From Pseudomonadota bacterium (GTDB taxonomy: Bacteria; Pseudomonadota; Alphaproteobacteria; UBA11222): a DNA stretch of 64,000 nt. Positions within the stretch are counted from its first letter, which is position 1. The number at the start of each line of letters is the position of its first letter. The position numbers were made by a program, and so were the translations under genes. The DNA is taken from positions 10,357 to 74,356 of the forward strand of contig JBMOMX010000035.1 in assembly GCA_049323435.1 (NCBI GenBank). The letters run 5' to 3'. The notes beneath the pieces are model-generated. The model ran no database searches and was not told the DNA's origin. It saw nothing but the letters and a program-made list of their open reading frames with translations. This document shows, piece after piece, positions 1,841 to 18,593 of this stretch.

Positions 1841-3607
1841 TCACCGCTCCAGCACATACAGGCCCGGCGCATCGCCCAGAGGCGCATAACCCTTTTGCGG
1901 CGCGCCCATTTGCGGCGAACTTACTCTATACCCGGAATGCCGGATCAGCCAGTCCTGCCAGCATAGCCACCAGGAGCCTTCCTGGCGCGGTGTCGCCTGC
2001 TGCCAGCGATCCGGATTTACATAGTTTTCGTCATCTTTTTGCGTCGATATCTGATAATGCTGCCCTGGCTGGCCCGGCGGGTTGACGATGCCCGCATTAT
2101 GGCCGCCATTCGACAGCACAAAGGTTACATCAGAACCAGTGAGCATCTGGATTTTGTAAACAGAACGCCAGGGCGCAACCTGATCCCCGATCGTACTCAC
2201 CGCGAAGATCGGAACCCGTATATCGCGCAGCGATACGGGCCGTCCGTCACACTCATAACGGCCCTCAACCAGATCATTGTCAAGAAACAGATGCCGCAGA
2301 TAGCCCGAATGCATATGAAAAGGCAGGCGCGTTGCATCGGCATTCCAGGCCATAAGATCGTTCATCGGCCGCCGCTGGCCCATCAGATAGGTTTTCACCA
2401 GCGCGGACCAGATCAGATCGTTCGAGCGCAAAAGCTGAAACGCGCCCGCCATCTGGCGCGTGTCGAGATACCCCTGTTCGGCCATCATATCCTCCAGAAA
2501 GCTGACCTGCGCATCGTCAATGAACAGCATCAGCTCTCCGGCCTCGGTGAAATCCGTCTGTGCGGCGAACAGCGTCAGGCTCTGAAGGCGGTCATCCGCA
2601 TCCCTGGCCATGGCGGCGGCGGTAATGGCGAGCAGCGTGCCGCCAATGCAATATCCGGCGGCGTGTATCTTCTGGCCGGGAACGATAGCCGAGATGGCGT
2701 CCAGCGCGGCCATGACGCCAAGCCTGCGGTAATCAACCATGCCCAGATCGCGGTCAGCGCCGGTGGGGTTCTTCCAGGAAATCATAAAAACCGTATGGCC
2801 TTTTTCCGTCAGATATTTTACCAGCGAATTTTCCGGAGAAAGATCGAGGATATAATATTTCATGATCCAGGCGGGGGTGATGAGAATCGGCTCCGCATGC
2901 ACGGTGTCCGCCGCCGGGGCATATTGAATCAGTTCGATCAGCCGGTTGCGGAGCACCACCTTGCCGGGCGTGACCGCCACATTGCGGCCAACCTGAAAGG
3001 CTTCCGCGCCAGCCGGCGGTGCGCCATTCACGGCCCGGCGCCAGTCTTCCCACAAATTGCGTGCGCCAATGACAAAATTCATTCCGCCCTGCCGGATGGT
3101 TTCCTCCAGTATTTCCGGATTTGTCAGCGGGAAATTCATTGGGGAAAGCATGTCAAGCAACTGACGCGCGGTAAAGGCGGTCACATCTTCATGGTGCCGG
3201 GAAACCCCGTCAACCCCTATGGTGGCGTTGTGCCACCATTGCTGCGTCAGCAGAAACCCCTGAGATATGGCGGCGAAGGGCTGTTTGCGCCACGCCTCGC
3301 CGGTGAAGCGGTTGTCAAATGGCAGCGGTTCAATGCATGGTGCGCAGGCAGGATCCGAACTGGCGCGCAGGCAATAGTCGGCGAAGCGCATCGATTTGCG
3401 CAAGGCCTTTATGGCAAGCAGGGCCTGCTTGTCAGGCGATAACAGCAGATGCTGCGCCCAGTCCGTATAGGCCTGCGCCAATGCGGCGGGCGAAATCCCG
3501 GCCGTAAATAACGCCGTGGCGGCGTGCAGCGGACGGTCGAAGGAAAAGGGCAGCCGCTCCGGCGGCTCTTTCCCCAACTGGTTTAATGACGGTGCTCGTT
3601 TTGCCAT
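1841..3607 (-). CDS. phaC: Class I poly(3-hydroxyalkanoate) synthase
   Basis: 588 aa, a typical class I length. Lipase-box GYCIGG is present and the alpha/beta-hydrolase core is conserved. It ends only 37 nt from the start of the acyl-CoA synthetase gene. Confidence 0.93.
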   Translation of the reverse strand: MAKRAPSLNQLGKEPPERLPFSFDRPLHAATALFTAGISPAALAQAYTDWAQHLLLSPDKQALLAIKALRKSMRFADYCLRASSDPACAPCIEPLPFDNRFTGEAWRKQPFAAISQGFLLTQQWWHNATIGVDGVSRHHEDVTAFTARQLLDMLSPMNFPLTNPEILEETIRQGGMNFVIGARNLWEDWRRAVNGAPPAGAEAFQVGRNVAVTPGKVVLRNRLIELIQYAPAADTVHAEPILITPAWIMKYYILDLSPENSLVKYLTEKGHTVFMISWKNPTGADRDLGMVDYRRLGVMAALDAISAIVPGQKIHAAGYCIGGTLLAITAAAMARDADDRLQSLTLFAAQTDFTEAGELMLFIDDAQVSFLEDMMAEQGYLDTRQMAGAFQLLRSNDLIWSALVKTYLMGQRRPMNDLMAWNADATRLPFHMHSGYLRHLFLDNDLVEGRYECDGRPVSLRDIRVPIFAVSTIGDQVAPWRSVYKIQMLTGSDVTFVLSNGGHNAGIVNPPGQPGQHYQISTQKDDENYVNPDRWQQATPRQEGSWWLCWQDWLIRHSGYRVSSPQMGAPQKGYAPLGDAPGLYVLER

Positions 3608-3694
3608 GTCTGATTATAATGTCTAACTTAGCTACGCTTGCAAACGCGGGGACGCAACGGCTGCCCGTAAATACACTGCGCGATCATTTGCGGG

Positions 3695-4285
3695 TCAGCG
3701 CTTTCTGCCACGCGCAGCAGATTTGGAAACAGTGGATGTGCGTTTACCAGCGCCCGTTTTAAGCAATGCCCGGACCTTTTTATTTTTCACCGGCGCGTCA
3801 TCATCATCATCATCATCATCCGTTTCCTCATCGGATGACGCCACATGTAATGTGAACTCTTTCGTTGCATCCGCTATGGCCGTCTCAGCCGCAGTATCGG
3901 CTCTCGCGGCCATATCGCGGACCATGGCCTGGCCACGCTCTTGCAGCCTTTGCGTCAGCTCCAGCCAGCTCCGGGTTTGCCCGGAGAAGCTCTCCATTAT
4001 GTCCGATACAATATTGGATTGGACGTCGATCAGATCCTGCGGCTTGCGCGCGCTGAACAGATCCTGAAAGTAACGCACGCTCCGTTCGCTGGCGGCTTTC
4101 AGCGCCTCGGTCTGGCGGGCCGATGCGTCCTGAACAAGCTTGCTCATATCCGCATTGTGCGCCTGAAATTTTCCGAAAAGGGATTCCATTTCGGATGTAT
4201 TGAAAATGCCGGACTGACCCCAGAAGGCACGCAAGCCGTTAAAGGGATTCATTGCCGCCGGGATGATTTCTGATGGTGCAGTCAT
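3695..4285 (-). CDS. Phasin (PHA granule-associated protein) with a poly-Asp and Lys-rich C-terminal tail
   Basis: The ORF runs to 4339, but AGGGAG sits 7 nt before the ATG at 4285 (MTAPSEIIPAAMNPF...). The body is a helical phasin-type sequence. It ends DDDDDDDD...KNKKVRALLKTGAGKRTSTVSKSAARGRKR. It lies next to phaC. Confidence 0.78.
   Translation of the reverse strand: MTAPSEIIPAAMNPFNGLRAFWGQSGIFNTSEMESLFGKFQAHNADMSKLVQDASARQTEALKAASERSVRYFQDLFSARKPQDLIDVQSNIVSDIMESFSGQTRSWLELTQRLQERGQAMVRDMAARADTAAETAIADATKEFTLHVASSDEETDDDDDDDDAPVKNKKVRALLKTGAGKRTSTVSKSAARGRKR
3798..3820. repeat. (TCA/ATC)7-8 trinucleotide microsatellite encoding the poly-Asp run of the phasin
   Basis: Plus strand reads gtcatcatcatcatcatcatcatcc. 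On the coding (minus) strand this is GAT repeats that give D8. Confidence 0.9.
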
Positions 4286-4425
4286 GATTCGTGCTCCCTG
4301 GTTATAGTTTACGCTTTGTAAGCTTAATGATCCGATCACGGAGCAATAATTTCATTGCCCCTGAATGATGCGAAAATCCTACCGCGCCATCGTGACGTAT
4401 TCGTGACAGGCGCGAATTTTTTCCG

Positions 4426-5436
4426 CTAAAGCAGCAGACTTGCAGTGATAATAAAACTCATTATTGAGAACGTGTCCTGAAGCACGGTGGCGACAGGACC
4501 AGAGCCAAGCGCGGGATCATATCCAAGCCGCGCGAACAGCCACGGCAGCAGAAAACCAATGGAGGTGGCGACGCTGCATGCAATAACCAGTGCTATCGCA
4601 ACAGACGCGCCCAGCGCCAGGCTGCCAAAACCCAGCCAGACCAGCGGCAAAGCCAGCGCCCCTAATGTTACGCCAATCACAATGCCGGTTCCGATCTCGC
4701 CCAGCAATAACTGCCCCATCCGGGCTTGTGTCAGTGACAGGCTTCGCACCGCAACCGATTCCGTCTGTGTTCCGACGGCGTCAGCGAGATAGACAATTGC
4801 GGGAATGAAGAAGGTAATTGCGATATGCGCCGCAAGCAGCGTCTCGAATTGCGATATCATGAGTGTCGCCAGGGCGCTGCCCGCCATACCGGCAAGCAGC
4901 CATGGCAATCTGTACCAGGCGCGCCGGAACGGCGGCGCCGTCAACGCCGCCTGCGCCGCCTCGGATTTTCCCATGATGCCAACAATATGATGCAGATCCT
5001 CAAGATGCTCATCACGCAGGATCAGCATCAGCGCCGCAGCCGGCACGGCGCCAATAAGGCGGCCATTCGCGTCGCAAACCGCCAGCGATGTGGCGTCTGC
5101 GCGGATCGCCAGGCTGGCGGCCAGTTCGCGATCCGTCTGAGGCGAAACGACATGGCTATTGGCAGGGAACATCAGCGCACTGATTATCTTGCTGGAAGGC
5201 GCCGCCAGAAGATCCGTAAGCTTGGCGACGCCCAGCAGCTTTTGGTCTTTATCGATGACAAAAACATGCGATGCATCGGCATAGCGCTGGCCCATAAGCC
5301 GCCCGCGCGCATCGGCGGCGCTTTCATCAGGCCCCGAAATGGGAATATCACGCACAATATAGCGCGCAACGGTTTGAGGATGCGGTGTTTCGTCCGGGGA
5401 GACAATGTCCACCATATTTTCAGACGCTGCTGTCAT
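4426..5436 (-). CDS. MgtE-family Mg2+/divalent-cation transporter, short form (CBS pair plus MgtE membrane domain, no MgtE_N)
   Basis: 336 aa. A CBS-pair region (VFVIDKDQKLLGV..., AVCDANGRLIGAV) is followed by five hydrophobic helices typical of the MgtE transmembrane domain. Confidence 0.82.
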   Translation of the reverse strand: MTAASENMVDIVSPDETPHPQTVARYIVRDIPISGPDESAADARGRLMGQRYADASHVFVIDKDQKLLGVAKLTDLLAAPSSKIISALMFPANSHVVSPQTDRELAASLAIRADATSLAVCDANGRLIGAVPAAALMLILRDEHLEDLHHIVGIMGKSEAAQAALTAPPFRRAWYRLPWLLAGMAGSALATLMISQFETLLAAHIAITFFIPAIVYLADAVGTQTESVAVRSLSLTQARMGQLLLGEIGTGIVIGVTLGALALPLVWLGFGSLALGASVAIALVIACSVATSIGFLLPWLFARLGYDPALGSGPVATVLQDTFSIMSFIITASLLL

Positions 5437-5688: not shown

Positions 5689-6054
5689 CTAGGCGATAGC
5701 CCCAATCAATGCCAGCGCCGACCGCTCGATAATCTTCTCGAGAACGAAGCCCCCGACCAGGCGGGTCGCAATCCTGCCTGTCTCCGAGATCACGTCTGTC
5801 TGCGCCTGCGGCACACCGCCTTCTGGCGTAACGATATTGTGGCCACGCAAATGATCCAGCAGGCCATTATGGCAGATCAGGCGCATATCATAGGTAATCT
5901 TAATGCTGCCGGTAACCGTGCTGGCCTCAACCGTTTTAACACCCTGTAATGCGGAGAGGGTTTCGCACACACGGCCCGCCAACCACTCATCGCGCTTGAT
6001 GGCGTCGCTGCGTACCCTCAGCCGGCCCGGAACATGATGCAGATAATGGACCAC
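5689..6054 (-). CDS. Hypothetical protein with an HMA-like fold lacking CxxC (HxVPGRxRxR motif), paralogue A
   Basis: GTG start with AGGAG 7 nt upstream. It opens VHYLHHVPGRLRVRSD...GVKTVEASTVTGSIKITYD. The predicted b-a-b-b-a-b order matches heavy-metal-associated domains, but Arg residues replace the metal-binding cysteines. The same motif occurs in ORF 6906-7427 and at the N-terminus of the ATPase at 12148. Confidence 0.65.
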   Translation of the reverse strand: MVHYLHHVPGRLRVRSDAIKRDEWLAGRVCETLSALQGVKTVEASTVTGSIKITYDMRLICHNGLLDHLRGHNIVTPEGGVPQAQTDVISETGRIATRLVGGFVLEKIIERSALALIGAIA

Positions 6055-6265: not shown

Positions 6266-6913
6266 TTACAGCACGCCATCACGTGGAGGTTGCGGTTTAC
6301 CCTCTGGCAGCAATGCGCCTGCTACACGCTTGACACCGCCCAGGACATTGACCAGCACGCTTTCCACTGCTGACACTGCCGTGTTGCTGATGCTTCCCGC
6401 CGCCTCAAGCGCGCCGTTCGCTGCCGATACGGCCAGATTGCCAACATTGCCGCCAATTTCAGCCGCCGCCTCGACCACGCCCTCCACAACGCGCTTGGCG
6501 ACCGTGCCGACATCGCCGCCAACTTCAGCCGTGCCCTTGACCGCAGTTTTAGCGAGTTCCGCAGCCGCGCCAATAAGATCGCCGCCAACATCACTGACGC
6601 CAAGAATGACGCCCTTGGCGACGCTCTTGGTGGACAGGACCAGTCCGGTGCCGACCTGCTCCGTGGCCTGGATGGTTCCATGGATCACGTCGCGGGCAAC
6701 CCCGAGTGTTTCGGATGTCACCGATTTAGCGGCATGCACCGTGTTGGTGACGGTGCTGCGCGCCAGCGCCACGATCTCAGCCTCGATTTGGTCGATACCG
6801 CGCAGGCTGTTCACGATACCGTCTTTGATCTTGAGGCCAGCCTCGCTGGCCGGCTGCGCGGTTTCATGCATTATCTCGGCTGCTGTTTCTTTAACATGTG
6901 GGGTCTTAACCAT
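6266..6913 (-). CDS. Hypothetical Gly/Ala/Val-rich protein with degenerate ~21-aa tandem repeats
   Basis: The ORF runs to 6994, but the ATG at 6913 has AAGGAG 7 nt upstream (MVKTPHVKE...). The repeats are SDVGGDLIGAAAELAKTAVKGT / AEVGGDVGTVAKRVVEGVVEAA / AEIGGNVGNLAVSAANGALEAA / GSISNTAVSAVESVLVNVLG. I see no recognisable family. Confidence 0.6.
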   Translation of the reverse strand: MVKTPHVKETAAEIMHETAQPASEAGLKIKDGIVNSLRGIDQIEAEIVALARSTVTNTVHAAKSVTSETLGVARDVIHGTIQATEQVGTGLVLSTKSVAKGVILGVSDVGGDLIGAAAELAKTAVKGTAEVGGDVGTVAKRVVEGVVEAAAEIGGNVGNLAVSAANGALEAAGSISNTAVSAVESVLVNVLGGVKRVAGALLPEGKPQPPRDGVL

Positions 6914-7427
6914 CTCTGTCTCCTTGCTGCTGATGTTTACGTTGTGCTTTCCTCCCCTCGCTTCCGCTTCTTTTAGGCGTGGCAACCGGGGCAATAGCCT
7001 CGATTTCCAGCGCCGCTTGATCTGTGTCCGCGTTCAACAGGCTGAACGCGTACCAGAAAAATGTTGCAGCCGGCGCAAGGACATTACCCTGCGCCAGCTG
7101 ATAAAGGCCAAGCCCGATCAATAGCGGCGGCAACAGGCTTCGCAGGTCCAGCGCCGCTATGTCCGTAGACGGTGCAGGCGGTTCCCCGCCAAGCCGGAAC
7201 AGGCCGTGTTGTTCGGCATAGCGCGTTATCGCTTCCGGCTCGGTGGTGTGAATGACCAGCACGCTTCCCGTCATAGGGTTTATTTCCACCGTCTGCACCA
7301 TCTCGCATTTCAACAGCTCCGCGCCTATATGGGCATAAAATTCCCGGTCCCCGCGCCGCGCCGCAATCCGGTAGCGCACTCTTCCAGGCACCTCATGCGT
7401 CAGCGCGGCGGCTGCATCGCCATTCAC
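6906..7427 (-). CDS. Hypothetical protein with an HMA-like fold lacking CxxC, paralogue B
   Basis: GTG start whose codon overlaps the upstream stop as GTGA. It opens ...THEVPGRVRYRIAARRGDREFYAHIGAELLKCEMVQTVEINPMTGSVLVIHT. The C-terminal half is hydrophobic and Pro/Leu-rich. Its stop overlaps the next gene's start by 8 nt. Confidence 0.62.
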   Translation of the reverse strand: MNGDAAAALTHEVPGRVRYRIAARRGDREFYAHIGAELLKCEMVQTVEINPMTGSVLVIHTTEPEAITRYAEQHGLFRLGGEPPAPSTDIAALDLRSLLPPLLIGLGLYQLAQGNVLAPAATFFWYAFSLLNADTDQAALEIEAIAPVATPKRSGSEGRKAQRKHQQQGDRDG

Positions 7428-7916: not shown

Positions 7917-9116
7917 CTAATCCCGCAGCGCGGGCACCTTGTCGATGCGTTCCCACGGCAGCCCAATATCCATGCGGCCTATATGACCATATGCCGCAAG
8001 GCGGCTGTAGAAGCGGCCGCGAAACAAAGCCGGCAGGCGGCGCAGATTAAATTCCGCGATTATTCCGGCTGGCCGAAACTCGAATGCGGCCTGCAACCTT
8101 TTTGCGATCTCTTCGTCCGCAATACGGCCCGTGCCAAAAGTCTGCACGCGCAGGCTGACAGGTTGCGCCATGCCGATCGTGTAACTGAGTTGCAACTCGC
8201 ACTCCTCCGCAAGCCCGGCGGCAACGACATTCTTCGCCGCGTAGCGGGCGGCATAGGCGCTAATCCGGTCAATGCGCGATGGGTCCTTACCGCTCAGGGC
8301 CGCGCCGCTGTGGCGTGAATATTCGCCATAAGTGTCAATCGCATTTTTGCGGCCGGTAAGCCCCGCATGCATTTCCGGCCCGCCCGTGAATAGCAGGCCG
8401 CCGGGATTGACGAAAATGCGGGTGGCGTTATCGGGGCGGATTAATTCATCTTCAAAGACCGGCTTGACGGCAAGATCGACGAGGTTTGCCTCCAGCTCCT
8501 TTAACGAAGGGGCGTGCCGGGGATCAACCGCGGCTGTAATGGTAAGGCTGTGGATGCGATGCGGGCGCCGGTTGCGATACTCCACCGCAACCTGAATCTT
8601 GCCGTCAGGGGCGAGATAGCCAAGCTGACGGGTGAGGCGGACGGTTGCGATGCGCCGCGCCAGCTTGTGCGCAAGCCAGACCGGCAGGGGCATCAGCGCA
8701 GCGGTCTGGGTGCAGGCATAGCCGAACTGGGTTACCTGGTTATCGGCGGCAATTGCGTCAATGCCCGCATCGTCCAGCATGGTTTCGTCGATCTCGCGGT
8801 AGGCGCCGCCAACTTCGGTAAGACTGGTCATGATGTGGCAGTTCGCGGCCGTGAACCCGTCTTCGTCATCGCCATTGCCATAGCCCGCACGCCTTATTGC
8901 CTGACGGGCAACCATTGGCGCATCAATCGTGGCGCGCGATGCGAAACGCACGGCAAGGAAGAGGATGCCCTTCGCAACGGCGCATTCGGCGTCAAGCCGG
9001 GAAAACGGGTCGGCAAGCAGATAACTGTCGAGGATCGAATCGCTGATCTGGTCGCACAGCTTGTCCGGATGCCCTTCGGTTACGGATTCGGATGTGAAGA
9101 CAAAATCTTCCATCAT
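7917..9116 (-). CDS. metK: S-adenosylmethionine synthetase, a divergent MetK paralogue
   Basis: The ORF extends to 9305, but the MetK N-terminus MMEDFVFTSESVTEGHPDK begins at 9116, giving 399 aa. The conserved blocks are altered: GGGAFSGKD is replaced by HSGAALSGKD, and DQGxMFGYA by DNQVTQFGYA. The ATGATGG start overlaps the ATPase TGA stop. Confidence 0.85.
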   Translation of the reverse strand: MMEDFVFTSESVTEGHPDKLCDQISDSILDSYLLADPFSRLDAECAVAKGILFLAVRFASRATIDAPMVARQAIRRAGYGNGDDEDGFTAANCHIMTSLTEVGGAYREIDETMLDDAGIDAIAADNQVTQFGYACTQTAALMPLPVWLAHKLARRIATVRLTRQLGYLAPDGKIQVAVEYRNRRPHRIHSLTITAAVDPRHAPSLKELEANLVDLAVKPVFEDELIRPDNATRIFVNPGGLLFTGGPEMHAGLTGRKNAIDTYGEYSRHSGAALSGKDPSRIDRISAYAARYAAKNVVAAGLAEECELQLSYTIGMAQPVSLRVQTFGTGRIADEEIAKRLQAAFEFRPAGIIAEFNLRRLPALFRGRFYSRLAAYGHIGRMDIGLPWERIDKVPALRD

Positions 9117-12100
9117 GCGCCTCCATCCGGATTTGCGGCTTGCGCCCGCAGCCGCGCGCCCTTGATGGTCTCGTTGACAAGCAGCGAACCTGCGGCAGCC
9201 GCGCCCGCCACGGCGTAATCCGCCAGTCCAAGCGCATCCAGCCCAAGCAGGCGGCGCGTTACAGGGAATAATGCGGCGAGCCCCTGCAACCCCAGCAGAC
9301 CCCATACCGCCTGGTTGAGACGCGGATTGGGCGGCAGCGCATTACGCTCGAAGATGGTGTGGCGCGGCGATCGGGCGGAGAGGGCATGCAGTAATTGCCC
9401 GGCGGCAAGCGTGATAAAGGCCACACCGCCAGCCGCCGGGCCAGCGCCATAGCGGGCGGCGCCATACAGATAGGCGGCCAGCCCGCCCGCGCTAAGCACC
9501 GCGCCTTCAATGCCGATGCGCCGGAACTCTTCTGCGGTAATCAGGGGTTCCCGCGGATCGCGCGGCGGGTCTTTGAGCACGTCCGGCTCGGGCGGTTCCA
9601 GCCCCAGCGCCAGCGCCGGGAAAATGTCCGAAACCAGATTGATCCACAATAGCTGCACCGGCGTAAGCGGCTGACCGAGACCAAGGCCGACCGCCCCCAG
9701 CATGACAAAGATTTCACTGGAATTGGTGGCGAGCAGGTAATGGATCGCCTTGCGGATGTTAGCGTAAATGGTCCGCCCCTGACCAAGCGCGACCAGCATG
9801 CTTTGAAGCCGGTCGTCCTCAAGGATCACATCGGCTACTTCGCGCGCCACATCGGTGCCGCTCTGGCCCATGGTCACTCCAATATCGGCCGCGCGCAGCG
9901 CAGGCCCGTCATTGATGCCATCACCCGTCATGGCCACAATATTGCCGTTGCGTTGCAGCGCCTGCACGATCTGCAATTTGTTCGCCGGGCTGACACGGGC
10001 GAACACATGCGTGCGCTGCGCCAGCCCCGCCAGCAATCCGGGATCAAGTCTGTCAAGATCAACGCCTTCAAGAATTTCCACAGGCTGGCCCTGAGAGAGA
10101 TCAAGCTCCCTGGCGATAGCGAAGGCCGTCGCACCCTGGTCACCTGTAATGATAATGGTGCGCAGGCCCGCATCATGGAAGTCCCGCATCAGCGCCGCCA
10201 TGCCGGGGCGCGTCGGATCGGCAAGGCCAGCCAGGCCCAGCCAGGAAAATGCGCCGGGATCCTGGGCATCGCCCTGGCGGGTTGCAAAGCCGAGCACCCG
10301 CAGGCCGCGCCCAGCCATTGCCTGGTTCAGTGCCTGGATGCGCAGCACATCCTCTTCGTCAAGCGGCCGCTCCGCGCCGCCATCAAAAAAGGCCGTGCAT
10401 AATTGCAGCACTTCGTCCGGGCTGCCTTTGACGGCCGTGAACGGGCAGCCATCCTCGCCTGCATGGCTGGTCATCATGAAACGATGCTGTTCCGTGCGCC
10501 GGTCCATATTGAGCATCGGGCGCTGTGCGCGCAATTGCCGCACATCGATGCCCGCAGACATGGCAAGTTCTATCAGCGCGGTTTCGGTCGGCGAACCCTT
10601 CAGCGAGACGTCTTCGTCCTCAGCGATCTCGACTTCGCTGCACAAGACGCAGGTTTCCAGCAGCCTGCGCAGTTCATCGTTTGCAGATGCGCTAGCCCCG
10701 GAATGGTTGCGCTGAATCTGACCGTCCGCGATCTCGAAGATTTCGCGGGCATTCGCGACCGCCACGGCGCTCATGCGGTTGAGCGTTAGCGTGCCTGTCT
10801 TGTCGAGGCATACGGTGCTGACGGCGCCAAGGGTTTCAACAGCATCCAGGCGGCGGATGAGAACGTTATGCGTCCGCATGGTGCGGATGCCCAGCGCCAG
10901 CGTCACCGTTGCGACTGTCGGCAGGCCTTCGGGCACCGCAGCAACGGCCAGCGAGACGCTGCTTCGGAGCATTTGCAACATTCCAAAGCCGCGCAGCAGA
11001 CCCAGCGAGAAAACCAGCCCACAGGCGCCCAGGCTGAGCCAGACCAACTGTTTGCCCATGATATCGAGCTGATGCTGCATGGGCGTTTCCGGCGGCCGTG
11101 CATCGCCCACCAGGGATTGAATATGGCCAAGTTCGGTGCGTTCCGCCGTCGCCGTCGCCGCCGCCAGGCCGGAGCCGCCCGTAACCGCGGTTCCCTTGAA
11201 CACCATATTTGCGCGATCGCCCAGCGCTGTCCCGGCGCTGGCGATGGCGGTAGCGCTCTTGACCGAGGGCATGCTTTCACCGGTAAGCGCGGATTCATCA
11301 ATTGTGAGATCCTTTGCCTCAATGACCCGCGCATCGCAGGCGATAAGCGTGCCCGGAACAAGCTTCAGCATATCGCCCGGAACGATGTCACAGGACGCGA
11401 CCTCGCAAACACCGCCGTCGCGCAGCACCAGCGGCGCAGCGGGCACAAGCCGGCCGAGCGCTTCAATGGTGTGCTCCGCCTCGGACTCGGAACGATAGCC
11501 AATGGCGGAATTTAGCGCCACGACCGCGAGAATAACCACTGCGTCCGCAAGCCCCCCGGTCGCAACCGACAGCGCCGCCGATCCGAGCAGCAAAAGCGAG
11601 GGCAAGCTGTTGACCTGGCCAAGCAGAATTTCAAGCGCGCTGCGGCGCGGCATTTGCGGCAGCGCATTCGGCCCGTAGCGCGCCAGCCGCAGCGCGGCCT
11701 CGCTGCTGGAAAGGCCTTGCTCCGGCTGTGTCTCCAGCCGCTGCAACACCTGCTCCCTGCTCAGCGTATGGGGCGGGGCATCCCCCGGGACGGCGTCTGG
11801 CATGCCGCTATCCTCGCGCTTCCTGCCTGCGGGGAAGGGAACGACATTTGGCGCCGGCTTTGGTTCGCCGATGTCCGCCGCGCCGGAATCGAGCATGGCC
11901 GCCACAGCCTGGATTATTGTGTCAACGGATCGCGCAGGATCAAAATGCACCAGCAGATTGCCGGTGCGGATATTTGCGGCGGCGGCGCGAATGCCGCTGC
12001 GCCCCGGAAGCCGATGCTCCAGCATCTGCGCAACCCCGGTATTGCGGTCAAGGCCAACCACTTTCAGGCGTGCGCGGCCGCTGACCGCGACATGCAGCGG

Positions 12101-12148
12101 TACGACGCCTGCAAGCGATGCGGCCATTGACGCCACGCTCATGACCAT
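9113..12148 (-). CDS. Cation-transporting P-type ATPase, P2 (Ca2+-ATPase-like) type, with an extra ~128-aa HMA-like N-terminal domain
   Basis: 1011 aa. It carries DKTGTLT, PEGLP, KGSPDEVL, TGDGINDGPAL and GVTMGQSGTDVAREVADVIL, and a Cation_ATPase_N helix (LSSSEAALRLARYGPNALPQ) at about residues 130-165. Ahead of that helix lies ...PLHVAVSGRARLKVVGL...TGNLLVHFD. Confidence 0.9.
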   Translation of the reverse strand: MVMSVASMAASLAGVVPLHVAVSGRARLKVVGLDRNTGVAQMLEHRLPGRSGIRAAAANIRTGNLLVHFDPARSVDTIIQAVAAMLDSGAADIGEPKPAPNVVPFPAGRKREDSGMPDAVPGDAPPHTLSREQVLQRLETQPEQGLSSSEAALRLARYGPNALPQMPRRSALEILLGQVNSLPSLLLLGSAALSVATGGLADAVVILAVVALNSAIGYRSESEAEHTIEALGRLVPAAPLVLRDGGVCEVASCDIVPGDMLKLVPGTLIACDARVIEAKDLTIDESALTGESMPSVKSATAIASAGTALGDRANMVFKGTAVTGGSGLAAATATAERTELGHIQSLVGDARPPETPMQHQLDIMGKQLVWLSLGACGLVFSLGLLRGFGMLQMLRSSVSLAVAAVPEGLPTVATVTLALGIRTMRTHNVLIRRLDAVETLGAVSTVCLDKTGTLTLNRMSAVAVANAREIFEIADGQIQRNHSGASASANDELRRLLETCVLCSEVEIAEDEDVSLKGSPTETALIELAMSAGIDVRQLRAQRPMLNMDRRTEQHRFMMTSHAGEDGCPFTAVKGSPDEVLQLCTAFFDGGAERPLDEEDVLRIQALNQAMAGRGLRVLGFATRQGDAQDPGAFSWLGLAGLADPTRPGMAALMRDFHDAGLRTIIITGDQGATAFAIARELDLSQGQPVEILEGVDLDRLDPGLLAGLAQRTHVFARVSPANKLQIVQALQRNGNIVAMTGDGINDGPALRAADIGVTMGQSGTDVAREVADVILEDDRLQSMLVALGQGRTIYANIRKAIHYLLATNSSEIFVMLGAVGLGLGQPLTPVQLLWINLVSDIFPALALGLEPPEPDVLKDPPRDPREPLITAEEFRRIGIEGAVLSAGGLAAYLYGAARYGAGPAAGGVAFITLAAGQLLHALSARSPRHTIFERNALPPNPRLNQAVWGLLGLQGLAALFPVTRRLLGLDALGLADYAVAGAAAAGSLLVNETIKGARLRAQAANPDGGA

Positions 12149-12636: not shown

Positions 12637-13947
12637 CTATTCCTTGCTGATCAGAACCGTTTCGACATGATGGTCGCGCATGCCTTCGACAATGAAGCGG
12701 TAGGCGCCATCGGTGATCATGTCCCCTTCCACCGGAATACGTTCCAGCCGGTGCATGAACAGGCCGGACAATGTATTCACATTGACCGGCTCGCCGGGAA
12801 TGTAACCGGTTTCACGCTCGACATCGGCCAGTGACGCCAGGCCATGCGCCTTCCATCCGGCGTCTGTTTCGGTGATCGGAAATTCCGAAATATTTTCGTC
12901 CGTTTCATCGGCGATTTCGCCGACAATTTCTTCCAGCAGATCTTCAATCGTCACCAGGCCGGCAAAAGTGCCATATTCATCCAGAATGCAGGCCATATGC
13001 GCCTTTTTAACCCGCATCATTTCAAACAAGGTGGAAACCTTGAGCGATTCCGTAACCACCAGCGGCTCACGGCAATGGATGCGCAAATCTTTCCAGGGCT
13101 CGGGCCCGCCCGAAAGCAGGGTGTCCACAATATCCTTCATCAGAATCATGCCGATAAGACTGTCGCCGCTGCCATCGACAAGCGGAAAACGCGAATGGCG
13201 CGTGTCTTTCATAATGGCCAGGTTGGACTCCGGCGGCTGATCCAGCCGCAGCAGATCACACTTCATCCGCGGGATCATGACCTGGCCCACTGTGCGTTCG
13301 TTGAACCGGAACAGGTTCTGGATCATCTCCGCGGTGTCAAGGTGCAATTCGCCATGCTCGGCCGATGTCGTCACCAGGCCGCGAAATTCCGTATTGGTCA
13401 GCACATCCATATGGCTGGCCTCCTCGACGCCGAACAGGCCAAGCATGCCCCGTGACGCCCGGTTAAGCCCCCAATGCAAGGGATAGGACAGCAGATAAAA
13501 AATCCGCAATGGAATGGCGCAGAACAATGAAAGCGCCTCGGGCTTGCGGATGGCGAAGGTTTTCGGCACCTGTTCTCCCACGACGATATGCAGCGACGAA
13601 AAGACAGTGAAGCCGATCAGAAACGAAATCGTATGCAATGCCGGCTGGCTCAGTTCGAACGGCGCCAGCAGCGGCTCGATCAGCGCCGCCACCGCTGGTT
13701 CGCCCACCCAGCCCAAACCAAGCGAAGCCATGGTGATGCCAAGCTGACAGGCCGCCAGATAGGCTTCGAGCTCCTCCTGTATTTTAAGGGTCAGTTTAGC
13801 CGAAAAACTGCCCGTGCTGGCCATGCTTTCAATACGAAATCCCCTCGCTTTCACCAGTGCGAATTCCGCCGCCACAAAAAATGCATTGGCGGCCAGCAGC
13901 ACCAGTACGGCGATCAGACTTACCGAAATTTCCTCGCTCGTCAGCAT
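12637..13947 (-). CDS. HlyC/CorC (CNNM) family transporter: DUF21, CBS pair and CorC_HlyC domains
   Basis: 436 aa. It has the N-terminal four-TM DUF21 region, CBS domains and the C-terminal CorC domain. Confidence 0.9.
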   Translation of the reverse strand: MLTSEEISVSLIAVLVLLAANAFFVAAEFALVKARGFRIESMASTGSFSAKLTLKIQEELEAYLAACQLGITMASLGLGWVGEPAVAALIEPLLAPFELSQPALHTISFLIGFTVFSSLHIVVGEQVPKTFAIRKPEALSLFCAIPLRIFYLLSYPLHWGLNRASRGMLGLFGVEEASHMDVLTNTEFRGLVTTSAEHGELHLDTAEMIQNLFRFNERTVGQVMIPRMKCDLLRLDQPPESNLAIMKDTRHSRFPLVDGSGDSLIGMILMKDIVDTLLSGGPEPWKDLRIHCREPLVVTESLKVSTLFEMMRVKKAHMACILDEYGTFAGLVTIEDLLEEIVGEIADETDENISEFPITETDAGWKAHGLASLADVERETGYIPGEPVNVNTLSGLFMHRLERIPVEGDMITDGAYRFIVEGMRDHHVETVLISKE

Positions 13948-15582: not shown

Positions 15583-15658
<76 letters not shown>

Positions 15659-18516: not shown

Positions 18517-18593
18517 GCCGCCGTAGCTCAGTTGGTTAGAGCGCTTGATTGTGGATCAAGAGGCCCCTGGTTCGAATCCAGGCGGTGGTACCA
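18517..18593 (+). tRNA. tRNA-His(GTG), with no genome-encoded G-1
   Basis: GCCGCCGTAGCTCAGTTGGTTAGAGCGCTTGATTGTGGATCAAGAGGCCCCTGGTTCGAATCCAGGCGGTGGTACCA. The anticodon loop is TTGTGGA. Confidence 0.85.

Follow-up and report, generated by a model that had tools for sequence, protein, structure and literature searches.

A cysteine-free HMA-like domain of the CoBaHMA family ahead of a P2-type cation pump in an alphaproteobacterial gene module

Introduction

Why should a P2-type cation pump carry, ahead of its core, a domain that resembles the metal-binding domains of P1B heavy-metal pumps and contains no cysteine? This question is raised by a gene on contig JBMOMX010000035.1 of the Pseudomonadota bacterium assembly GCA_049323435.1 (GTDB lineage Alphaproteobacteria; UBA11222). 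The window analysed here is a 64,000-nucleotide stretch of this contig (positions 10,357 to 74,356 of the forward strand), and all coordinates below are counted from its first letter. The 128 codons at 11765-12148 are added in front of a type II pump whose core is complete, and a preliminary description, made from the DNA letters alone, had recognised in them a heavy-metal-associated (HMA)-like domain and had implied that such an extension was new. The fold assignment is upheld here and the novelty is not, so that the earlier interpretation is partly supported. The extension belongs to a family that has already been named, CoBaHMA, and it is proposed below that the domain may serve as a regulatory or targeting module rather than as a metal-binding one.

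The extension and its host pump

The extension is, in the structural models, a cysteine-free HMA-like ferredoxin fold. AlphaFold2, run with 46 homologous N-termini, predicts strands (b) and helices (a) in the order b0 (residues 15-19), b1 (25-30), a1 (37-46), b2 (53-59), b3 (64-69) and a2 (75-91), with block-mean values of the predicted local distance difference test (pLDDT) of 81-92 in the domain core and low confidence past residue ~92. A full-length model of the pump agrees (mean pLDDT 87.5, predicted template-modelling score 0.79), the domain scoring 83-93. The b1-a1-b2-b3 layout read from the letters by the preliminary description is thus reproduced by the models, and the strings that it quoted are present in the protein: HVAVSGRARLKVVGL at residues 19-33, GVAQMLEHRL at 37-47 and TGNLLVHFD at 62-70. 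From the strand order of the ferredoxin fold, b0 would take the position of b4 beside b1.

Structural neighbours of the domain point in the same direction. The top Foldseek matches in the PDB are HMA domains and copper or mercury chaperones (ZiaA, CopZ, CzcP, CopA, ATP7B and MerP), at probabilities of 0.98-1.0, target-normalised TM-scores of 0.6-0.73 and root-mean-square deviations of 1.6-2.6 Å over ~63 columns; proteins of the KipI type (YbgJK, PH0987) rank lower. Sequence comparison finds the same relatives more faintly. When the PDB was searched with the N-terminus the matches were marginal (E = 0.036-1.4), and the first five were HMA domains of P1B pumps (from ZiaA, CzcP, ATP7B and CopA). 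A word-indexed homologue search with the 128-residue N-terminus alone gave no match, and the domain was reached through full-length matches and a profile.

A classical metal-binding HMA domain (PF00403) was considered and is ruled out. Residues 1-128 contain no Cys, there is no GMxCxxC motif, and PF00403 does not match the pump at E <= 1. The proposal that Gly and Arg replace the MxCxxC loop holds at the level of single positions, Arg35 and Gly38 standing where GMxCxxC has its two Cys.

The host protein is a type II pump. The Pfam domain Cation_ATPase_N begins at residue 127, which places residues 1-126 before the canonical P2 core as had been claimed, and it is followed by E1-E2_ATPase, Cation_ATPase, Hydrolase and Cation_ATPase_C; the N- and C-terminal membrane domains of type II pumps (PF00690 and PF00689) therefore both match. 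The catalytic and ion-helix motifs are in place: DKTGT at residues 449-453 (Asp449), PEGL with Glu407, and TGDGINDGPAL. In NCBIfam the pump scores 244 against TIGR01494 (cutoff 62), and the highest-ranking specific models are those of Ca2+ pumps of the PMR1 type (576.6, cutoff 798.3), the SERCA type (479.7, cutoff 703.4) and the PMCA type, each below its equivalog cutoff. A P1B heavy-metal ATPase was also considered and is ruled out, in agreement with the preliminary description: the ion helix carries PEGLP and no CPx or SPC, Cation_ATPase_N and Cation_ATPase_C are both present, and the P1B models TIGR01525, TIGR01511 and TIGR01512 reach only 225, 153 and 167 against cutoffs of 346, 397 and 313, respectively.

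The pump comes closest, among solved structures, to human SPCA1 (8iwp; matched over residues 132-997 at E = 7e-137) and to Listeria LMCA1 (6zhf; E = 1.9e-134). None of the listed matches begins before pump residue 123, the two best ones starting at 132-135, and the extension is thus covered by none. In an alignment with SERCA1a, Asn768, Glu771, Asn796 and Asp800 are conserved, Thr799 is replaced by Ser, and the counterpart of Glu309 is the Glu407 of PEGL; the position of Glu908 in transmembrane helix 8 is Gln when judged by eye, outside the computed alignment. On these similarities the best guess for the transported ion is Ca2+, or Ca2+ and Mn2+.

Translation of the pump probably starts at Met3 (position 12142 on the minus strand, the open reading frame itself starting at 12148), because a Shine-Dalgarno-like element, GGGGTGG, lies 6 nucleotides upstream and because the database copy P0001 has 1009 residues. 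A start at Met3 in place of the first ATG leaves the CoBaHMA domain unaffected. The plus-strand reading frames that cover the N-terminal region of the pump (for example 11654..12130) are antisense frames of a GC-rich gene. The coordinates of the pump, its domains and the neighbouring genes are collected in Table 1.

Table 1. Coordinates in the window of the pump, its N-terminal features and the genes of the surrounding module.
Feature	Position	Strand	Evidence
P2-type (SPCA1/LMCA1-like) cation ATPase, 1011 aa	9113..12148	-	Single long open reading frame; Pfam, NCBIfam and motifs
Predicted CoBaHMA (Pfam HMA_2) domain, residues ~14-92, b0-b1-a1-b2-b3-a2, no Cys	11873..12109	-	Pfam, AlphaFold2, Foldseek, hhalign
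Extra strand b0, residues 15-19, ending in signature His19	12092..12106	-	AlphaFold2 (both models); His19 in 108/113 homologues
Gly24-Arg25-x-Arg27-x-Lys29 stripe of b1, then Gly32-Leu33-x-Arg35 replacing the GMxCxxC loop	12044..12079	-	Homologue conservation
Flexible linker, residues 93-126, predicted disordered	11771..11872	-	pLDDT <50 for residues 92-118, full-length model
Cation_ATPase_N, residues 127-194, where the canonical P2 core begins	11567..11770	-	PF00690, E = 6.2e-19
MetK-like gene, divergent	7917..9116	-	TIGR01034 358.7 (cutoff 309.4); ~42% identity to E. coli MetK
DUF5132 protein, N-terminal transmembrane helix then acidic helix	7424..7792	-	Pfam PF17195, E = 6.6e-11
Second CoBaHMA protein, C-terminal hydrophobic hairpin, 4-nt overlap with DUF5132	6906..7427	-	HMA_2 46.2 bits (cutoff 30)
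Gly/Ala-rich protein, 215 aa, repetitive G/A/V/E segments	6266..6913	-	No Pfam or PDB relative
Third CoBaHMA protein, single domain, 121 aa	5689..6054	-	HMA_2 38.1 bits, above cutoff
CBS-MgtE-like channel, 336 aa, shorter than canonical MgtE	4426..5436	-	Pfam MgtE and CBS

Assignment to the CoBaHMA family

CoBaHMA, for Conserved Basic residues HMA, was named in 2022 by Benzerara et al. from the N-terminus of W-type calcyanin (PMC8890360), and the Pfam family HMA_2 (PF19991) corresponds to it (10.1101/2024.07.07.602159). The family is defined by a fold of the HMA superfamily, the loss of CxxC, an additional strand b0 with a conserved His, and basic residues in b1 and b2 that create a charged patch (PMC8890360; 10.1101/2024.07.07.602159); b0 was placed with the KipI structure 2KWA as reference (PMC8890360). 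All four features are present in the window protein. Its signature basic residues are Arg25, Arg27, Lys29 and Arg35, and His19 lies in b0.

Pfam HMA_2 matches residues 12-82 of the pump with E = 1.7e-6. Furthermore, a profile of pump N-termini aligned by hhalign to the 121-residue HMA_2 protein of the window (5689-6054) gives a probability of 96% and E = 3.7e-9, and this alignment pairs the His, the GRxR, the TG and the FD end of b3. The Pfam model is an independent line of evidence, and together with the profile-profile alignment it shows that the match to the HMA superfamily is not due to chance. The domain is filed as CoBaHMA because it combines the four signature features with a profile-profile match to an HMA_2 protein that lies above the Pfam cutoff; residues ~14-92 of the pump are thus, on sequence and predicted fold, a CoBaHMA domain.

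Conservation was counted among the 120 top-ranking full-length homologues, with lengths of roughly 1000-1060 residues and identities of 49-84%, the denominators being those aligned at each residue. His19 is kept in 108/113, Gly24 in 114/115, Arg25 in 115/115, Arg27 in 117/118, Lys or Arg at position 29 in 90/118 and Arg35 in 99/117, while Thr62-Gly63 is nearly invariant. The Gly-Arg pair is counted as present in 115 homologues. The basic b2 residue, Arg54, is less conserved (45/117). In the more diverse alignment of 46 sequences, with 24-69% identity to the query, Gly24, Arg25, Arg27 and Leu33 are invariant. Because basic and hydrophobic residues alternate in b1 (G-R-A-R-L-K-V), Arg25, Arg27 and Lys29 are expected on the exposed face of the sheet beside His19, where they would form a flat cationic surface.

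Between the domain and Cation_ATPase_N, most relatives keep a basic linker motif, S-R-R-K-L-R-K ... A-E-x-Q ... W-H. In the window pump and its two closest relatives this motif is degenerate (GRKRED ... PPH). It may be a second regulatory element that was lost in the lineage of the window pump.

Distribution of the architecture

The combination of a CoBaHMA domain with a P2 ATPase is the rule in a widespread clade of bacterial pumps. Precomputed PF19991 annotation is already attached to 77 of the 120 best homologues, and the signature is found in almost all of them, whether or not the Pfam score is passed. A search of 1.84 billion representative proteins with the domain profile returned 4,834 clusters (at 50% identity) with E <= 0.001 and 923 with E <= 1e-10, many of these clusters being short stand-alone proteins or gene fragments. 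In species-representative genomes, one peptide pattern led to 354 confirmed pump loci in at least seven phyla; the scan used a 232-residue N-terminal alignment, and the search pattern lies in transmembrane helix 2. Among the loci are those of Nitrosospira, Nitrosovibrio, Thermithiobacillus, Thiobacillus, Methylococcales, Rhodospirillales, Nitrospirota and Thermodesulfovibrionales, as well as of Syntrophobacteraceae, Acidobacteriota, Methylomirabilis, Myxococcota and many heterocystous cyanobacteria. An unclassified Pseudomonadota metagenome-assembled genome (locus L007 of our survey) supplies the nearest relative, with 68% identity over the N-terminal 232 residues.

As such, the extension itself is already known: the family has been named, is covered by a Pfam model and is the subject of a paper of its own, and its fusion to a P-type ATPase is annotated by public pipelines. 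The preliminary description had itself set two possibilities against its proposal, a disordered or non-HMA N-terminus and an extension that is a common, annotated feature of the subfamily. The first is contradicted by the confidently predicted HMA fold, and the second is what was found, in the form of PF19991. Literature searches on HMA_2/PF19991, on DUF5132, on metK together with P-type ATPases and on P2 pumps with an N-terminal HMA domain returned the calcyanin papers only, and DUF5132 is named in just one paper of the literature searched.

Possible functions of the domain

The reading that we favour, with a probability of about 70%, is that the CoBaHMA domain would regulate or target the pump without binding metal, by means of a basic sheet face that engages an anionic partner. 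The domain is joined by a predicted disordered linker of ~35 residues to a pump core resembling those of the Ca2+(/Mn2+) pumps SPCA1, LMCA1 and SERCA. It would bind no heavy metal and would instead engage an anionic partner at the cytoplasmic surface of the membrane. Two candidates for such a partner are anionic lipid head groups and the acidic helix of the co-encoded DUF5132 protein. The mean net charge is about +3 for CoBaHMA domains and -4.5 for the DUF5132 proteins (n = 51). Through binding of the partner, the domain and the module's two stand-alone CoBaHMA proteins could jointly regulate the pump or fix its location. Gaschignard et al. are said to have described CoBaHMA in membrane proteins involved in transport. 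Regulation through anionic lipids is their hypothesis for the family (Gaschignard et al., 2024, as quoted in a passage of 10.64898/2025.12.07.689555).

Several points weigh against this proposal. The window domain reaches 28.5 bits with HMA_2 and so falls slightly under the 30-bit gathering cutoff of Pfam. No b4 strand appears in the AlphaFold2 prediction of the pump N-terminus, which is therefore not a complete classical bababb HMA fold. The net charge of the domain in the window pump is only +3, within a family range of -4 to +9. The transported ion was assigned by similarity only, every NCBIfam equivalog cutoff having been missed. Moreover, no experimental data on the function of any CoBaHMA domain were found in the literature, where lipid binding is a hypothesis.

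Four other explanations were weighed. Autoinhibition and the docking of a partner had both been suggested in the preliminary description and are both plausible, the latter being supported indirectly by the two stand-alone CoBaHMA proteins of the cluster. Autoinhibition and docking between CoBaHMA domains rank second after regulation or targeting through an anionic partner, and cation sensing and a relic come last, because the conservation pattern speaks against a relic and the basic signature against cation binding.

An intramolecular autoinhibitor is possible, if clearly less probable than an anionic partner: the CoBaHMA domain or the basic linker would dock on the pump's own actuator (A), nucleotide-binding (N) or phosphorylation (P) domain and would keep the pump inactive until it is released by a signal. 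Plant ACA pumps (P2B) are controlled in this mode by an autoinhibitory N-terminal region, as P3 and P4 ATPases are by their terminal tails, and terminal regulatory domains are common among P-type ATPases in general. The flexible tether lies directly before the segment that leads into the A domain and transmembrane helix 1, and the linker motif (RRKLRK...AExQ...WH) conserved in most relatives would offer a basic docking element. Its degeneration in the window pump and the two closest relatives argues against such a role, and the presence of CoBaHMA in stand-alone proteins, in calcyanin and reportedly in other membrane proteins argues for a partner that is not specific to the pump.

A docking site for the co-encoded stand-alone CoBaHMA proteins, much as the chaperones Atx1 and CopZ bind to the HMA domains of P1B pumps, is an equally tentative explanation. 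The domains would make a protein contact, or would exchange or sense a non-metal ligand. Heterodimers of HMA domains are an established mode of interaction in copper trafficking. The cluster of the window holds two further CoBaHMA genes, and 28 of the 46 loci of at least 18 kb have additional CoBaHMA proteins no further than 10 kb from the pump. However, the same face is basic in all three domains of the window, so that face-to-face pairing is disfavoured, and in cyanobacterial, Rhodospirillales and Methylococcales members the pump-MetK pair is found with no CoBaHMA genes nearby.

That the domain is a cytoplasmic cation sensor, with His19, Glu44 and Asp/Asn70 binding Ca2+, Mg2+ or a transition metal and reporting its level to the pump, is improbable. 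These positions are indeed conserved, Glu44 in 103/117 and Asp/Asn70 in 92/120 homologues beside the count for His19 given above, and the cluster contains other proteins of divalent-cation handling, an MgtE-like channel downstream and a CNNM/CorC-type protein upstream. The dominant conserved residues are nevertheless Arg and Lys, which repel cations; there is one conserved His only and no Cys, and the family analyses report the lost metal-binding Cys and no alternative metal site (PMC8890360). Finally, a functionless relic of a P1B metal-binding domain, its Cys lost after domain shuffling, would account for the weak sequence similarity to P1B HMA domains (ZiaA, E = 0.036) and for the lost metal-binding loop, but it is effectively refuted by strong purifying selection on a distinct and specific signature (the four residues invariant in the 46 sequences, at ~30% identity and across phyla), by the thousands of protein clusters that match the domain profile and by the confident fold model.

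The gene module around the pump

The pump lies in an operon-like cluster, the other genes of the module following downstream on the minus strand (Table 1), and the MetK-like gene starts with an ATG (9114-9116) that shares two bases with the pump stop codon (9113-9115), forming ATGA. The gene set recurs in Nitrosospira sp. Nsp14, on a groundwater contig of 83% identity, in a further Pseudomonadota metagenome-assembled genome, and on Nitrospirota and other contigs with Pfam-labelled genes. The neighbourhood of the pump was surveyed in 80 genome loci and in these contigs (loci numbered with the prefix L). Of the 71 loci whose downstream sequence is long enough, 61, representing at least seven phyla, have a MetK-like gene on the same strand immediately after the pump; this is the case in L001, L002, L004-L007, L087-L089 and most of L009-L086. 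No paper on the pair of MetK and a CoBaHMA pump was found in the literature searched.

The pump-linked MetK-like proteins form a clade with a distinctive set of changes. All 67 sequences compared carry His where GDxGLTGRK has its Asp. They do not conserve GAGDQG, which reads AADNQV in the window copy, and HGGGAFSGKD has become [HYQ]S[GED][AS]ALSGKD, the window copy having HSGAALSGKD. From the E. coli enzyme, whose residue numbering and roles we assume here, the altered positions are presumably in the active site. The MetK-like protein may be a paralogue with an active-site Asp-to-His change that is translationally coupled to the pump. A DUF3562 gene encoding 74-82 residues stands directly after the MetK-like gene in three of the Pfam-labelled contigs, at 13244-13474 in L004, 12300-12548 in L088 and 13216-13440 in L089.

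The remaining members are less constant. Among the same 46 longer loci, DUF5132 is found in 29 and the Gly/Ala-rich protein in 23. The latter has 39 homologues, all hypothetical, and several of those from Syntrophobacteraceae are fused to a MucR/ROS domain (PF05443). The CBS-MgtE protein scores 145.9 against TIGR00400 (cutoff 232.75), matching model positions 166-446 only, and its gene is also present in L001, L002, L004 and L087.

Beyond this core the genes are not conserved. A Pfam scan of 148 flanking open reading frames, from about half of 52 surveyed loci, gave 146 families of which none occurred more than five times, DUF445 being the most frequent at five. A link to phosphate or polyphosphate as a general feature of the module was considered and rejected on this count. 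Such genes do stand beside the module in three loci: PPK2 in L002, PstSCAB, alkaline phosphatase and PsiE in L005, and Ppx-GppA, CHAD, PhoU and alkaline phosphatase in L089. In the window, the module is followed immediately downstream by genes for PhaC and a phasin (1841-4339, minus strand), an arrangement shared with L001 only. Upstream of the pump, a CNNM/CorC-type protein is encoded at 12637-13947 (minus strand), so that proteins of divalent-cation handling are found on both sides, the CBS-MgtE being the other. A CNNM protein is also near the pump in L004, with an Na_Ca_ex protein and a second P2 ATPase that has no CoBaHMA domain.

No riboswitch or leader was detected upstream of the pump, the Rfam matches in the window being two tRNAs (15586-15658, minus strand; 18517-18590, plus strand), and a scan for promoters and terminators upstream of the pump remained at background level.

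Comparison with known systems

The closest known counterpart is the CoBaHMA domain of W-type calcyanin (CcyA), which shares with the window domain the HMA core, the b0 His, the basic residues in b1 and shortly behind it, the absence of CxxC and the Pfam model. The two differ in what they are attached to, a (GlyZip)3 domain in calcyanin and a P2-type ATPase in the window, and the window copy departs from the calcyanin CoBaHMA family by its slightly sub-cutoff Pfam score, the lack of a predicted b4 and the less conserved b2 Arg54. CcyA belongs to cyanobacteria that form intracellular amorphous calcium carbonate (PMC8890360). In Microcystis, ccyA is surrounded by genes for two DUF5132 proteins, for one protein each of the CoBaHMA-DUF454Cter and CoBaHMA types, for GlyZip proteins and for a Ca2+/H+ exchanger, several of which are co-expressed with ccyA (10.1101/2024.07.07.602159). 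The parts list of the window module resembles this one, a likeness that is suggestive.

The classical HMA domains of P1B pumps and metallochaperones (ZiaA, CopA, ATP7A/B, CopZ and MerP; PF00403) have the same core fold (Foldseek probability ~1), and in P1B pumps they are, like the window domain, N-terminal and tethered by a linker to a P-type pump. They differ from it in having GMxCxxC and neither b0 nor the basic signature, and their host is of the CPx type, whereas that of the window domain is type II (PEGL, of the 10-transmembrane-helix type). SPCA1 (ATP2C1) and LMCA1 are the best full-length structural matches, and the Ca2+-site residues aligned to SERCA are conserved in the window pump, but their structures have no counterpart aligned to the CoBaHMA extension.

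N-terminal regulators that are flexibly linked ahead of the A domain are known from other P-type ATPases, such as the calmodulin-regulated N-terminus of plant ACA pumps (P2B) and the lipid-binding N-terminal domain of ATP13A2 (P5B). Their folds and sequences are unrelated to the window domain, and no calmodulin-binding motif was identified in the window pump, so that the analogy is functional only. Similarly, cysteine-less HMA folds with non-metal uses have been described in the YAM domain of YajR, a transporter of the major facilitator superfamily in E. coli, and in the iHMA domains of plant NLR proteins (PMC8890360). YAM resembles the window domain in being attached to the cytosolic end of a membrane transporter. 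By description, both YAM and iHMA differ from it in having no b0 His and no basic stripe, and YAM is C-terminal and sits on a secondary transporter.

Significance

The conserved module of pump, MetK-like, DUF5132 and CoBaHMA genes, of which no description was found in the literature searched, is of greater interest than the domain itself. One speculative and rather unlikely interpretation, drawn by analogy, is that the module (the DUF5132 protein, the membrane-anchored CoBaHMA protein, the Gly/Ala-rich protein, the pump, the MetK-like protein, the soluble CoBaHMA protein and often the CBS-MgtE) builds or loads an intracellular cation-rich inclusion or membrane domain, with the CoBaHMA domains recruiting its parts to one anionic surface. 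The inclusion might be amorphous carbonate, polyphosphate or something else, and the pump would be the energised transporter of the module. Hosts of such a structure would include nitrifiers, sulfur oxidisers, Nitrospirota, Syntrophobacteraceae and some cyanobacteria.

The pump gives a direct read-out, in ATPase activity and in transport with and without the domain, and could therefore test the idea of an anionic partner better than calcyanin can. In the strikingly conserved gene context, a pump of the Ca2+ type is linked to a MetK paralogue whose active site is altered, as well as to the same families of unknown function that occur around the biomineralisation marker ccyA. If the genes of the module act together, they would make up a widespread bacterial cation-handling system that extends well beyond cyanobacteria, and such a system, if true, would be found in the culturable organisms Nitrosospira multiformis, Thermithiobacillus tepidarius and Chlorogloeopsis fritschii.

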